A DNA stretch of 64,000 nucleotides from a virus: the IMG/VR virus record IMGVR_UViG_3300045988_176028; one strand, 5' to 3'. Under the pieces are notes generated by a model, which saw only the letters and a program-made list of their open reading frames with translations, had not been told where the DNA came from and made no database searches. Positions 3,834 through 63,270 of this stretch are shown here, in pieces; the stretch's first letter is position 1, and every line of letters begins with the position of its first letter. A program made the position numbers and the translations under genes.

Positions 3834-3855
3834 TGTTATACTGGCAGTGTTCACA
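3834..3855 (+). promoter_or_regulatory. repeated promoter motif, copy P1
   Basis: TGtTATACTggcagtGTTCACA: extended -10, a 6-nt spacer and the GTTCACA box, 23 nt upstream of TTG 3879. Confidence 0.6.
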
Positions 3856-3878
3856 AAATCGGTGAAGAGGTAAAACTT

Positions 3879-4406
3879 TTGAAAGACTACGACTGGTGGG
3901 TAAAAGCGTGGAACGCCTATAATAATCCACCCACCAAAACGATTCCATTGGACGCGTCCGATGCTCTCCAAGGGAAAATCACGTCCGTGGTGGTTCTTGT
4001 CATAGCCATATTCGCAATCCCGTTAATCATCCGACGGGCCATAGCTGACGCTAAAGAAGACATGATGGGGAAAATCGAACTCGTCGCCGCAGTAATCGCT
4101 TCGGTCTGTCTGTCCGTTATGTGTGTCTGGATGGTTTACGACGCTTTTGCCATGGAACAAACCCAAGAAGTCAAAACCAGTGTCACCCACCCGCTCGGTT
4201 TCGAAGACCAATTGGAAAAAGACTTCAAAGTGTCAAATCTATCTTGTAAGACCGACGCCTACTTAATCCTCCCCGACCATGGTTCCTACGATTGCACGTT
4301 CACCAGCAAGGACGGGAAATCAGTAACGAAGGGCACACTTGTTATAACCGAGAGCGAAAAAGTCGGACTATACGACGCCAATGGAAAGCTGGTTGAAACA
4401 AGATGA
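3879..4406 (+). CDS. small two-TM membrane protein, paralog family member A1
   Basis: 175 aa. N-terminal KDYDWWVKAWNAY motif, two hydrophobic helices, and a C-terminal ~80-aa domain with two Cys (SC...YDC) ending KVGLYDANGKLV. GAAGAGG RBS upstream of a TTG start. Confidence 0.7.
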   Translation: MKDYDWWVKAWNAYNNPPTKTIPLDASDALQGKITSVVVLVIAIFAIPLIIRRAIADAKEDMMGKIELVAAVIASVCLSVMCVWMVYDAFAMEQTQEVKTSVTHPLGFEDQLEKDFKVSNLSCKTDAYLILPDHGSYDCTFTSKDGKSVTKGTLVITESEKVGLYDANGKLVETR

Positions 4407-4876
4407 AAGATTTCAGCAATTGGCTGGAAGCGTGGAAGAATTATCCTCCTGTTCCTGACTGGTTAAACATTTTAGGCACTATTGTTATTGGTGTTCTCCT
4501 AGTATTGATGGCCGTCGGAATAATTGTCGGCTTTATCGGGGCTTTTCTCCGCGATAGTCTCTTATTCGTAAGAATTATCGGCATAAGTCTTGTTAGCGGG
4601 TTTATGGGCGTATTCCTCGTAATGTGCGTCAGCGGCCTTATCGACAACTATTACGAACAGCGTTCGACGGCACCTCCCACTATTCGCGAGCAGATTTCCA
4701 AAGTTTGGAACTTGGACGACATCGACTGCGATTTTTCTAGCAAAGACAAACTTCCTACCGAAGATTTGAAATGCGTCGTCTACCGTGGCGACAAGAAGAC
4801 CAAAGTCACACTGCACGCAAGCGAAAACAAACTCGGCCTGTACACACAGGATGGAAAACGTTTCCCAATCAAATAG
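4403..4876 (+). CDS. small two-TM membrane protein, paralog family member A2
   Basis: 157 aa with an ATGA overlap to A1. Motifs: KDFSNWLEAWKNY, a hydrophobic core, DC...KC, and NKLGLYTQDGKRF at the end. Confidence 0.7.
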   Translation: MKDFSNWLEAWKNYPPVPDWLNILGTIVIGVLLVLMAVGIIVGFIGAFLRDSLLFVRIIGISLVSGFMGVFLVMCVSGLIDNYYEQRSTAPPTIREQISKVWNLDDIDCDFSSKDKLPTEDLKCVVYRGDKKTKVTLHASENKLGLYTQDGKRFPIK

Positions 4877-4891
4877 GAAGGATTTAAAAAA

Positions 4892-5515
4892 GTGTTAGAG
4901 CATGGCGAAGAACTTAACCTGAGAATGTTGCAACCATTGGACACGGACACTACGGCTGGCATACTTCGCGAATCCGGCTATCTGGTTCCATTATCCAAGT
5001 GGAGCAAGGCCCGGCAAGACTACAAAGGCAATACCGACCGTTGGGCGTTCAATATCATAGCATGTGCTTTCATTGGCCTCATGGTCGCCTGTTTGGAAAT
5101 GTGGTCTACCCGAAATATTCCAATCAAACTTCCGAAATATACTCCCGTAGCCGTTTTTCTACTGGGTTTCGCTTTTGGTTGGGTGCAACTGTTAGGCACG
5201 TCCGATAGGCGGAAAAGGGGTTTTCGACCGAAGCCGGATAATCCAGTCCAAGTATTGGAGTCTACTTTCGACGTTCATGTGGCTGGAGACAGTGACACGT
5301 CGCTTTTCGACAAGACCGGATATAAGAAATTTCTTCTTCGTGTTGACGGCACTCACTACGCTCAGGCTACATTGTTTGTTTGGGAAGAATCATACGATTT
5401 GAAGGAAGAGCGTACTTGGCCTTTGGTTAGTATCGCATTGTTCGATGAGGACGGAAAGCCGGTCAAACTGCAATCGGTTGAGTCGAAGAAGGAATCTGAA
5501 AGCGTTGAACGGTAG
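4892..5515 (+). CDS. small two-TM membrane protein, divergent paralog A3
   Basis: 207 aa. GTG start with a GGAAGGA RBS. A ~33-aa N-terminal extension, then LSKWSKARQDY, two hydrophobic helices, and a C-terminus with IALFDEDGKPVKL. The ectodomain Cys pair is absent. Confidence 0.6.
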   Translation: MLEHGEELNLRMLQPLDTDTTAGILRESGYLVPLSKWSKARQDYKGNTDRWAFNIIACAFIGLMVACLEMWSTRNIPIKLPKYTPVAVFLLGFAFGWVQLLGTSDRRKRGFRPKPDNPVQVLESTFDVHVAGDSDTSLFDKTGYKKFLLRVDGTHYAQATLFVWEESYDLKEERTWPLVSIALFDEDGKPVKLQSVESKKESESVER

Positions 5516-5657
5516 ACCAACTTCGGAAGAACGGGATACGAGGTGGTAAGAACCGACGCAGTTCCGGGGCACAGTGGACAGACAGTCGAATATGATGTTT
5601 CCACCATCGACCGTCTACATTCTTCGCAAGAAAAAACATTAGAAGACTGGAGTAGGC

Positions 5658-61159: not shown

Positions 61160-61190
61160 TCTTGTTAAGCCCTCCGAATCGGTAGGAGAA

Positions 61191-62894
61191 CTACAGCATA
61201 CATCCTCGACTCAGCAAGTCACCGACATACTCCATGTCCACTCCACGCTCATTGAACGCCTTACGAGTGTAGACAAGACGATTCATGTTCGCATGGGACA
61301 GAACCCAACGTGCCAGCTCCGCACGTTCTGAATGGTCATTGTCGGCAATCGGCTTGTTACGTAACACAGCACGCTCCAACAGGTTGCGAAGACTCTTGAC
61401 CTCAAGGTAATAGTCCGACTTCAACTTGAACATGTAGCCGTCAGCGTCATAAACCACCACACCCTCACGGTCAGACCAGCGGCGTTCCTCGTCCAACATA
61501 TGCCACAGGCTATCCCGCTGTTCCTCAGTCGAAAAAACAGCCAGAACCTCGGGGCGGGTGAAGAATCTGTCAGTATCAATCAAATCGTCGGCGTCATAGT
61601 CGATATGGAAGTCGGCGGTGTTTTTGATGGCGTGCAGGAACACAAGCCGTGACGTATCATACCTGATGATATGACGGTCGGAATCTTGGTCGATGACTTC
61701 GAAAGCCAAGGTGACGTTAGCGTCATGGGCGATGTTCCACAACGCTTCCTCCTGACCGATGTCCAACGTTTGTTTGAAAAGACGTTGGATAAGATACGAA
61801 TAGTCGGTCTGGCCGCTCTTCGACCAGAAACGCCAAGAACCGTCCTCACGCGCGGACACCAAGCCGAGGAAACCGTTCTCCTTGCGTTCCACGCGCACTG
61901 GAAACTTGAGACGCCTATCAATGTTCTCACGAGTGGTCTGCTCGTTCTCCCCAAGGTTGAAGAACTTCTCGAAACCTCGTGCGACAACCTTACCGTTCCC
62001 GTCAAGGAACAGTCCGCGAGCCTTGCTGGAATACTTGTCCCAACGCTGGTTTTTGAAAGCGTCACGGCTGAAATTGCAAGCGTATACGTCGTTCTCGCCC
62101 TTGACTGGGCGGACGTTCACGTTGTCGGAGTCGCGCATGAGTTCGAGCAGGTTCCTTCCATCCGTGGAGAAGTCGGCAAACCCGTCATTGGCCTTATGCG
62201 CACCCTGCTCCAACCACTTCGAGTAACGGTCGAGAGTCCACTTCCTACCATCTCTGAGCGGCGGCATATCCAACTGGATGGCACCGGTCAAATCACGTCC
62301 CTTTGCCGGTACGGCGGTATAACCGAACTCGGCATTGTCGGGAACACGGGTCTTGTCGTTCCACAGCAATCCCACGTCCACCAGTGCGAGGTCTCCGGAC
62401 GGATTCATATGGTAGGTTCCGTCAACCTTCCTTACATGGATGTTGACCCAACGGCTTTCATGGTCAAGATTCTCATGACAAGTCTCATACTGGGTGCGCA
62501 GATACTCCTCCGGCACACGGTCGTTTTCCGGACGGGTCTGGTTGCGTTCCAGTAGAACGTCCAATGACGTGTTGAACGTCATGGTTTCCACATGTGCCTT
62601 ATGACGGACGGCAATCTGCACCTCGTTCACGCAGAAACGCGGGTTGACGTGCTGGGAGTCGCTGATGACGTTCACACCCTTGGCAAGCAGGTCGCTGATG
62701 ATGGTATGCGCCTGACGGACGAGAATCCTGTTCAACTGTGGATTCATGGTTTCATGCCATGCCTGACGACCTCCCGCCATCATTTCACGCAAACCGTCCA
62801 AGCTGACGATTACCGTATTGGAATCGACATGCTTACGTGCCCAAGTGCTCTTTCCTGAGCCGGGCAATCCTCTGAGAATGGTCAAAGTAGTCAT
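61191..62894 (-). CDS. polynucleotide kinase - RNA ligase fusion protein
   Basis: N-terminal P-loop kinase (ILRGLPGSGKSTWA...VIVSLD...SDSQH). C-terminal nucleotidyltransferase motifs: I KENGFLG, III LAFEVID, IV EGVVVYD, V FKLKSDYY. Confidence 0.7.
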   Translation of the reverse strand: MTTLTILRGLPGSGKSTWARKHVDSNTVIVSLDGLREMMAGGRQAWHETMNPQLNRILVRQAHTIISDLLAKGVNVISDSQHVNPRFCVNEVQIAVRHKAHVETMTFNTSLDVLLERNQTRPENDRVPEEYLRTQYETCHENLDHESRWVNIHVRKVDGTYHMNPSGDLALVDVGLLWNDKTRVPDNAEFGYTAVPAKGRDLTGAIQLDMPPLRDGRKWTLDRYSKWLEQGAHKANDGFADFSTDGRNLLELMRDSDNVNVRPVKGENDVYACNFSRDAFKNQRWDKYSSKARGLFLDGNGKVVARGFEKFFNLGENEQTTRENIDRRLKFPVRVERKENGFLGLVSAREDGSWRFWSKSGQTDYSYLIQRLFKQTLDIGQEEALWNIAHDANVTLAFEVIDQDSDRHIIRYDTSRLVFLHAIKNTADFHIDYDADDLIDTDRFFTRPEVLAVFSTEEQRDSLWHMLDEERRWSDREGVVVYDADGYMFKLKSDYYLEVKSLRNLLERAVLRNKPIADNDHSERAELARWVLSHANMNRLVYTRKAFNERGVDMEYVGDLLSRGCML

Positions 62895-62926
62895 TATCTT
62901 TTTTTCTTTCGTTTCGTCTGTTTAAA

Positions 62927-63217
62927 TTATTGAACCTGAACGTCGTACAGTTTTTCCAGTATTTCTTCGGTGGATTCTTCCCCACGGTATTCAGTCCGGT
63001 CTGACGTGTAGATGCCGTCCATAATCTCGTAAAGGGAGACTATGGTTTCGTCGGTCAGATTGGAGAGACGGCCTTCGATGTACGCTTTTTTCATGGCGGC
63101 TCTCGTTTTTCCGTCGGACACCTTCTGCTGGTCGAGCCATTCGTCGGCGTCTTTTTTCGTCTTGCGGACAATCGCCATGCGTAAGGCGTTTGCGTATTGC
63201 TTCTGGTAGCTATTCAT
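62927..63217 (-). CDS. hypothetical small protein
   Basis: 96-aa ORF with a GGAGAAA RBS. First gene after promoter P9. Confidence 0.5.
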   Translation of the reverse strand: MNSYQKQYANALRMAIVRKTKKDADEWLDQQKVSDGKTRAAMKKAYIEGRLSNLTDETIVSLYEIMDGIYTSDRTEYRGEESTEEILEKLYDVQVQ

Positions 63218-63248
63218 TTTTTTCTCCTTATGGTTTAAGACTTGTTTG

Positions 63249-63270
63249 TGTGAACAGTTCCAGTATAGCT
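63249..63270 (-). promoter_or_regulatory. repeated promoter motif, copy P9 (minus strand)
   Basis: The reverse complement reads agcTATACTggaactGTTCACA, 31 nt upstream of the start at 63217. Confidence 0.55.

Follow-up and report, generated by a model that had tools for sequence, protein, structure and literature searches.

The closest described counterpart of the motif reported here lies on pMP7017, a conjugative megaplasmid of Bifidobacterium breve JCM 7017, where a 34-bp motif in 19 copies, 13 of them added beyond a first set, overlaps the −10 element (Dineen et al. 2024, Microb Biotechnol 17:e14405, PMC10832533). RNA sequencing (RNA-seq) in B. breve UCC2003 placed it over mapped −10 elements of highly transcribed units, with 56 genes, about 24% of the coding capacity, predicted to lie under its promoters; the authors proposed a transcription-factor binding site, which they stated to occur in pMP7017 homologues and to be missing from bifidobacterial chromosomes (PMC10832533). 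We analyzed a 64,000-nucleotide stretch of DNA (IMG/VR virus record IMGVR_UViG_3300045988_176028; "the window" throughout) in which an extended −10 promoter followed by a GTTCACA box recurs in front of operons, and found that it carries this same motif: AWAYATGYTATACTGAATATGTCCACATAAAAWA on pMP7017, with TATACT as the −10, and TGyTATAsTGGnnnnGTYCACAyAa in the window. In both settings the motif lies over the −10, stands in many copies before unrelated operons and is confined to a megaplasmid family. The two versions differ in that the window discriminator starts with GG and its box is mostly GTTCACA, against GA and GTCCACA on pMP7017, and in that the long leader and ribosome-binding site shared by pMP7017 sites are unconserved in the window. 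The motif had thus already been published in 2024 (PMC10832533). Because the homologues compared in that study were restricted to plasmids of B. longum whose backbone proteins share at least 70% identity (PMC10832533), the window lineage falls outside its coverage. Our analysis appears to go beyond that article in several respects: the sites lack a −35, their spacing is rigid, −10 and box are coupled almost without exception, two clades have a core in common, conservation is island-like, and specificity was scanned globally. The value added is confirmation, extension and correction of a published motif, with no new phenomenon.

Several better-known systems resemble the motif in part. Extended −10 (TGn) promoters work without a −35, as in the galP1 type of E. 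coli, and actinobacterial −10-only promoters are assisted by RbpA and CarD; Feklistov and colleagues reportedly described, in 2006, a "GGGA" discriminator element for Thermus sigma-A. The motif shares with extended −10 promoters the TG at −15/−14, the TATAsT hexamer, a G at −6 (in the window clade also at −5), the lack of a conserved −35 and a purine 7 nt after the hexamer, and is predicted to function as they do. Known promoters of this kind, however, have neither conserved positions from +2 to +10 nor element-wide uniformity. Among global plasmid regulons, the KorA/KorB operators of IncP RK2 are palindromic and the omega heptads (WATCACW) of inc18 need arrays of at least two. These are likewise short operators repeated at many plasmid promoters, overlapping core elements and coordinating backbone and cargo operons, and the omega heptad has TCAC(A) in common with the window box, but here a single asymmetric box sits at a fixed distance from the −10. 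Actinophages provide the conserved inverted repeats of phiC31, which are palindromic, the stoperators of L5, which are not tied to a −10, and the start-associated sequences of Cluster K, which lie at the ribosome-binding site. Like the motif, such repeats are short, conserved, intergenic, oriented with transcription and particular to one actinobacterial mobile element, and in phiC31 and L5 a repressor encoded by the element itself recognizes them; beyond the palindromy of the former and the placement of the latter, none of them is similar in sequence to the window motif. T7-type promoters (23 bp, −17 to +6) are also long, high in information, private to their element, span the start and give a shared 5' end. 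They are served by a phage single-subunit polymerase, none of which is annotated on pMP7017, whereas the upstream half of our motif is a sigma-70-type −10. The motif lacks what defines global plasmid regulons, actinophage operators and T7-type promoters: repeats in dyad or tandem arrangement, a cognate regulator that is known, or a polymerase of their own. Putative mobile promoters, which Matus-Garcia and colleagues are said to have put forward in 2012, and phage morons come close in another respect, with one promoter sequence before non-homologous genes (83 families here), often an upstream terminator, and breakpoints adjacent to the motif; they imply neither a start-site box nor conservation across deeply diverged lineages.

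Our preferred reading, to which we give about an even chance (roughly 50%), is that the motif joins a strong sigma-A promoter, independent of a −35, to a start-site box that a putative element-specific factor reads. The promoter part of this explanation is much more secure than the factor part. What had been proposed from the window is supported in part. Its core, an extended −10 promoter plus start-site box that heads many operons and is specific to the element, holds up: the pMP7017 copies overlap mapped −10s, and the motif is element-restricted in our scans.

Searching both strands of the window for TGNTATANTGGNNNNGTYCACA with up to two mismatches recovered all 11 copies of the initial annotation, coordinates and strands included, and nothing else. 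Dinucleotide-preserving shuffles of the window give an expectation of 0.02 matches and a maximum of 1; the recurrence is confirmed as real and far beyond chance. Every copy is wholly intergenic, as had been claimed (11/11, with an intergenic share of the window of only 8.3%; P about 1e-12), and every copy faces a downstream open reading frame (ORF). The TG is present at 9 of the 11 sites and the TATAsT hexamer at 10, and the box follows each of the nine exact TGNTATANT strings of the window at precisely the 6-nt gap described earlier. The 22-nt consensus was right in its core and too short: the 11 sites aligned with their flanks give TGyTATAsTGGnnnWGTYCACAyAa, with conservation reaching 3 nt past the heptamer (yAa) and no conserved −35 in the flanks. 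The count of "at least 11" likewise stands for the pattern sites and grows by weaker copies, since a position weight matrix scan of the window adds matches at 7108+ (20.6 bits), 37460+ (14.4) and 47112+ (14.9), the last of which lies inside a coding region and is probably due to chance. The distance to the start codon, given as 1–80 nt, had to be corrected to about 15–119 nt from the box; nine copies lie within 60 nt of the start, and the farther ones stand at 67 nt (two) and 119 nt. A generic −35/−10 promoter scan detects one of three motif sites in the first 20 kb of the window, and generic promoter/terminator scanning is of little use here because the motif sites lack a −35.

We then compared the window with pMP7017, neither of which was retrieved by the motif pattern, and with a family set of 637 kb of IMG/VR loci that was retrieved by it and holds 199 sites (174 unique). 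Upstream of the TG, window and family sites carry at most 0.4 bit per position, and thus no −35 signal; neither a conserved −35 nor an UP element was found across them. The gap between hexamer and box is 6 nt in 9/9 window sites, 19/20 pMP7017 sites and 155/156 sites of the IMG/VR loci (183/185 in total). The box accompanies 9/9 TGnTATAnT strings in the window and 15/19 on pMP7017, and of the 430 GTYCACA heptamers in family DNA half (215) follow a −10 at this set distance, versus about 2% for 25 permuted heptamers. From the fixed gap and this coupling of the two halves, it follows that −10 and box form one rigid unit.

Two clades can be told apart within the family. The pMP7017-type sequence is TGTTATACTGAATATGTCCACATAAAA and the window-type sequence TGyTATACTGGAAT(T/C)GTTCACA(C/T)AAA, with positions 11 and 18 varying together by clade (G11/T18 at 82 sites versus A11/C18 at 48). 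Comparing the two lineages strips the motif to a core that is invariant in both, TATA.TG.....GT.CACA.A, and fixes its geometry. What lies downstream belongs to 83 unrelated protein families, with a median of 27 nt between the box and a Shine-Dalgarno sequence plus start (192 sites). Terminator-like hairpins occur within 100 nt upstream of 33% of sites, compared with 5.7% of random positions, so many copies head insulated, moron-like units. The copy at 44244 has unrelated DNA on both flanks in sequences L113 and L115, which retain the 24-bp motif, and among close variants of the window element polymorphisms within the motif are confined to the low-information positions 8, 12–14 and 18. Comparison of the variants shows a motif that is evidently under purifying selection.

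A matrix built from the window sites alone finds about 27 sites on pMP7017, at 19–34 bits, where shuffles yield 0.1 matches of at least 15 bits per 190 kb. Orthologous genes carry the motif on both elements, namely ssb and a DUF1524/GmrSD_C nuclease gene with a small upstream ORF.

Outside this family the motif is nearly absent. A strict pattern scan of one genome for each of 185,579 species, Bifidobacterium included, returned no more than 30 stretches. Of these, 29 hold one exact match each and come from unrelated phyla, and a small contig holds two. The 29 single matches are at or below the chance number of about 70, a rough estimate of our own that assumes uniform composition. The pattern scan of IMG/VR, by comparison, found at least 75 loci, clustered on contigs of 40–205 kb, several of them 80–97% identical to parts of the window. 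Of 72,556 plasmids, only six match a 47-nt consensus cassette; each is a Bifidobacterium megaplasmid, matched at 7–17 places. Among 50,697 phage records the cassette has no meaningful match and finds no cultured phage. Scanning for occurrences in coding sequence and throughout host genomes had been suggested as the way to refute the proposal. The outcome favors the proposal: what emerges is a motif that is intergenic, not multi-copy in any of the species genomes and, among plasmids, limited to those six. Sequence L024 (3.7 kb, two copies, binned as an alphaproteobacterium) is probably a mis-binned fragment of a family element, and L026, a 102.6-kb contig of B. callitrichidarum at 54% GC with three matrix matches within 8 kb, suggests a family member in a marmoset bifidobacterium. 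B. ramosum and B. biavatii have one conserved full composite copy in common, TGTTATACTG[A/G]ATGCGTCCACATACA (L023 7884(−), L033 4082(+)), which lies in DNA of 63–65% GC, upstream of a 275-aa membrane-anchored protein beside a glycoside hydrolase gene. This copy is apparently chromosomal, a lone chromosomal use of the plasmid promoter.

In the preferred reading, the cassette would be the standard promoter of the pMP7017-family bifidobacterial conjugative megaplasmids. TGyTATAsTG(G/A) looks like a near-consensus extended −10 with a G-start discriminator, presumably used by the primary sigma-A polymerase of the host, which, given that no −35 is conserved, should act without −35 contact. This use of sigma-A is deduced from the sequence and from general knowledge, and transcription at such sites has been demonstrated by RNA-seq for pMP7017 only. 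The G of GTYCACA would fall at the predicted +1, and the GTYCACAyAa box would span +1 to +10. Start sites in the pMP7017 study carry a stated imprecision of about 20 nt, and its supplementary tables hold no start-site coordinates (PMC10832533). Given the invariant 6-nt spacing, transcripts are predicted to begin 5'-GUYCACA. To our knowledge, RNA polymerase does not read +3 to +10 in a sequence-specific manner; C+4, A+5, C+6, A+7 and A+9 are nevertheless invariant despite diverged leaders, and another reader is therefore called for. The invariance of the box over two clades whose proteins are 35–55% identical, its fixed spacing and its family restriction together suggest a factor-binding box, at which a putative element-specific factor may act on the promoter–polymerase complex. 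Such a factor could be a global repressor or activator and would couple dozens of insulated cargo, defense and DNA-metabolism cassettes into one regulon, with the cassette itself appearing to spread by copy-and-paste or recombination before unrelated genes. The clade-wide G11/T18 and A11/C18 variants fit co-evolution with a reader; the hosts of the clades also differ, B. longum and B. breve on one side and B. adolescentis on the other.

Several observations count against a dedicated factor. The clade variants could reflect the host polymerase or plain copying instead of a plasmid factor. The box is asymmetric, and only a weak dyad, TGRA-N4-TYCA, can be drawn, which the commonest combinations at positions 11 and 18 (G/T and A/C) break. 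Boxes standing free upstream of genes are not enriched (14.4% versus 14.8% for permuted-heptamer controls), so nowhere does the box seem to act separately from the −10. On pMP7017 the entire leader and ribosome-binding site are common to several sites, which shows recent copy-paste that inflates the apparent conservation. In log-phase cells that carry the plasmid, expression from motif promoters is high (PMC10832533), which speaks against tight repression. Nor is the motif wholly confined to the family, given the site in B. ramosum and B. biavatii. Finally, no DNA-binding regulator was found by Pfam among the about 50 window proteins, weak zinc-ribbon matches aside, in a search that covered 64 kb of a roughly 210-kb element, and a divergent Xre-type control region of pMP7017 (106700–106810; L003 about 6900–7010) holds two copies of TTTTCTGAGT, likely a separate operator system unrelated to the box.

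Much of this would be accommodated by a self-sufficient "super-promoter" with no dedicated factor, 25 bp tuned to sigma-A in which the box adjusts start choice, escape or early pausing, and whose uniformity stems from copy-paste or gene conversion before new cargo, as for mobile promoters or phage morons. The upstream half is indeed a textbook extended −10 with a G-rich discriminator, pMP7017 leaders and ribosome-binding sites were copied along with the promoter, the downstream families are unrelated and mosaic junctions hug the motif; steady-state activity is high (PMC10832533), no regulator has turned up, and the chromosomal copy in B. ramosum and B. biavatii apparently does without a plasmid. 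We nevertheless regard this account as possible but clearly the weaker one. In the window clade, the older of the two, the leaders have diverged completely, yet +1 to +10 is invariant, over positions that polymerase is, as a matter of general knowledge, not known to read by sequence. Host chromosomes would be expected to use the best host promoter, and only the B. ramosum/B. biavatii locus does so; an information content of about 30 bits, itself inflated by site selection, is far above what a sigma-70-type promoter needs. A separate rival, a generic strong host promoter found throughout the chromosome, has that single conserved locus in its favor and is effectively refuted by the 30 stretches among the species genomes, by plasmid and phage scans that are also negative outside the family, and by the published host promoters, which are of the canonical TTGACA-17-TATAAT type, with the motif reported absent from bifidobacterial chromosomes (PMC10832533).

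The rigid spacing could instead serve a function in RNA, with a common 5'-GUYCACAYAA tag read by an RNA-binding or RNA-modifying activity of the element or by the 5'-end-dependent decay or translation machinery of the host. The fixed 6-nt gap brings the box precisely to the predicted +1, where it always falls on the transcribed side in sense orientation; leaders are short (about 34 nt) and A-rich with a 5' end predicted to be single-stranded (unpaired probability 0.74), and the family is rich in Pnkp-like kinase-ligases, RNA ligases and ADP-ribosylglycohydrolases. Conservation, however, runs unbroken from −15 to +10 and takes in the untranscribed discriminator, as for a DNA site; 5' ends show no structural signal and do not differ from shuffled controls, the window has no Rfam family match, and box-only copies inside operons are unenriched. 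We consider a purely RNA-level role unlikely. About as doubtful is a bolder proposal that spans both levels, a private initiation signal in which sigma-A binds the extended −10 while positions +1 to +10 are recognized, in DNA or in 5'-GUYCACAYAA RNA, by a factor that the megaplasmid encodes. If true, conjugative plasmids would run a phage-like, self-addressed expression program over about a quarter of their genes, and the GG...GTTCACA (B. adolescentis) and GA...GTCCACA (B. longum/B. breve) versions would represent co-evolution with the putative factor. Further still from what we expect is a promoter private to an element-encoded sigma factor, sigma appropriator or RNA polymerase, whether T7-type or like the late promoters of T4, which have a −10-type element and nothing else. 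The motif is long and high in information, spans +1, lacks a −35 and is strictly element-specific, IMG/VR files the elements as viral, and most of their genes are of unknown function; its upstream half, on the other hand, perfectly matches the extended −10 of the primary sigma, no such protein appears in the RefSeq annotation of pMP7017 or in Pfam scans of the window genes (highly divergent factors aside), and one conserved chromosomal copy exists. That last reading is improbable.

Our search for a reader of the box extended beyond the window. Ten genes downstream of the motif, taken family-wide, include no DNA-binding regulator by Pfam. pMP7017 encodes WhiB, Xre-type and ImmA-type regulators, none of them linked to the box; no homologue of its Xre-type, WhiB and ImmA-neighbor genes could be detected in the window-clade DNA available, and no WhiB-like cysteine pattern occurs in the window. 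Half-sites of LexA, CRP/FNR, LacI and GntR type were considered for the box and rejected, each fitting 2–4 positions of one half with no symmetric partner. A TGGA/TCCA hairpin in DNA or RNA was dismissed as well, since the commonest 11/18 pairs, G/T and A/C, lend a stem no support. The idea that an isolated box within operons serves in processing or translation was likewise discarded, box-only copies being unenriched against 25 permuted heptamers.

The window copies and the genes they precede are as follows.

3834..3855, plus strand: motif copy TGTTATACTGGCAGTGTTCACA, 34.0 bits; serves 3879–5515, three small genes with no Pfam match
7108..7132, plus strand: possible twelfth copy TGTTAAACTGCGTTCCTTCACATAA, 20.6 bits; inside the ADP-ribosylglycohydrolase gene 6552–7436
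9085..9106, plus strand: motif copy TGATATACTGGGATTGTTCACA, 35.8 bits; ATG 9122 lies 15 nt past the box and starts a 280-aa gene with no Pfam match
11063..11084, minus strand: motif copy TGTTATAGTGGATTTGTCCACA, 32.0 bits; serves 9982–10995(−), a 337-aa protein
25905..25926, plus strand: motif copy; precedes ssb (25949–26518)
32669..32690, plus strand: degenerate copy TACTAAACTGGATTTGTCCACA; precedes a 50-aa ORF and a GmrSD_C/DUF1524 nuclease gene
37371..37392, plus strand: motif copy with GTTTACA, in the RepA–sortase intergenic region; sortase ATG 37512 lies 119 nt past the box
37460..37484, plus strand: weak second copy AGCTAAACTGGATATGTCCGCAACG, 14.4 bits; 89 nt downstream of the 37371 copy
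41745..41766, plus strand: motif copy TGTTATACTGAGATTGTTCACA; precedes 41795–42169 (124 aa)
42181..42202, plus strand: motif copy; precedes 42223–43200 (weak NT5C/HAD-like match), then a Lar-like zinc-ribbon gene
44244..44265, plus strand: motif copy TGTTATACTGGTAGTGTCCACA; gene start TTG 44333 lies 67 nt past the box
47665..47686, plus strand: motif copy; precedes 47722–48237 (weak Clp_N match)
63249..63270, minus strand: motif copy AGCTATACTGGAACTGTTCACA; heads the operon running from 62927 down to 59997

A strong terminator hairpin (3795–3824) ends 9 nt upstream of the 3834 copy. The copy at 7108 may be an internal promoter for 7430–9006, or a relic, and that at 37460 may be a decayed tandem promoter. 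The 337-aa protein served by the 11063 copy is weakly similar to the product of a "colicin transporter" gene of pMP7017. At ssb, pMP7017 has an orthologous copy at 160426(−), and homology among four related elements begins about 8 nt upstream of the TG. The pMP7017 orthologue of the 32669 copy, at 37479(−), has the identical degenerate −10, TAAACT. The orthologue of the 42181 copy in L112 reads GTCCACA, making position 18 polymorphic (T/C), and orthologues of the 47665 copy vary at positions 8 (G>A) and 13 (T>C). The operon headed by the 63249 copy consists of a 96-aa gene, a kinase/RNA-ligase (Pnkp-like) gene, a 101-aa gene and thyA. Of the gene labels first assigned, Pfam bears out SSB, the sortase and the kinase plus RNA ligase; NT5C/HAD-like and Clp_N are weak matches only, and the "ART-like" and two-TM genes have no Pfam match. 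Independent gene calls place the sortase start at ATG 37512, giving 395 aa.

Two further points of the initial annotation fail or weaken on comparison. A near-leaderless mRNA had been predicted at 44244 from an ATG directly beside the box. That ATG is absent from L113 and L115, which read CACATAAAAAC there, while the TTG at 44333, its Shine-Dalgarno sequence AGAAGGAA and the coding sequence, called as 171 aa by gene callers, are conserved in both, and the near-leaderless mRNA is therefore refuted. A link to the replicon had also been drawn from a GTTCACA at 37085. The 21-bp iterons (TTACATTCTCAGGCAGAAGTC) number four, and this heptamer belongs to the first of them, a degenerate copy, where it looks like a one-base iteron variant and not a motif copy, so the resemblance is probably coincidental. 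The leader at 44266–44332 holds a perfect palindrome, GGTTGGCCAACC, within GGCGTGGTTGGCCAACCGCC; L113 and L115 have an unrelated leader.

The window itself is a piece of a widespread B. adolescentis-type megaplasmid of about 205–220 kb, a distant branch of the pMP7017 family. Its genes include a RepA_C replicase beside the four 21-bp iterons, SSB, a sortase, very large surface proteins, CHAP and NlpC/P60 hydrolases, two TnpB, thymidylate synthase and the kinase/RNA-ligase fusion. The replicase is about 35% identical to that of Bifidobacterium megaplasmids including pMP7017, 21 window proteins have pMP7017 homologues, mostly at 30–55% identity, and window 11.6–31.4 kb is syntenic with pMP7017 172–151 kb. 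RepA_C, the large surface proteins, ssb, the sortase and the CHAP and NlpC/P60 conjugation-module genes are common to both elements. The exact window replicase occurs on metagenomic contigs of 205–220 kb, and it was found in 1366 indexed blocks of a metagenome collection, on more than 800 contigs; in NCBI, both the replicase and SSB are assigned to Bifidobacterium adolescentis. In the literature we found no paper describing this lineage. IMG/VR files many contigs of the window type (110–205 kb) as viral.

The megaplasmid family is very common in human gut bifidobacteria, and the motif marks an apparent single regulon over a large share of its genes. As a compact, probably strong, −35-independent promoter, the 25-bp cassette could also serve Bifidobacterium engineering.

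Mosaic breakpoints fall within a few bases of the motif edges, at window 25890–25905 and 44235–44270 relative to L060, L066, L090, L113 and L115. Cassettes may thus be exchanged by recombination at the 25 bp that the elements share, or the motif may simply be kept by selection. At one pMP7017 locus, 60352–60382 (L002 about 10452–10482), a box with no canonical −10 lies upstream of one gene of the dnaB operon and is preceded by two more TCCACA units (ATCCACAATCCACAACAACTGTCCACATAA), with orthologues in L042, L050, L092, L106 and L109; this looks like the only place where the box resembles a repeated protein-binding unit.

Two TnpB (IS605-family) genes, at 34081–35499(−) and 39327–40820(+), flank the replicase–sortase region. 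DNA around the second (about 39269–40882) is about 90% identical to B. longum megaplasmid DNA, and the remainder of the queried 12-kb stretch (36000–48000) gave no match in that search; the identity points to a recent exchange of DNA between the clades. Under or near motif promoters lie clusters of genes that modify and repair nucleic acids, at window 5658–9006, where an ADP-ribosylglycohydrolase stands beside zinc-ribbon proteins, and at 59997–63217, where the Pnkp-like kinase/RNA-ligase accompanies thymidylate synthase. Both clusters are typical phage-like counter-defense or repair cargo on a conjugative plasmid.

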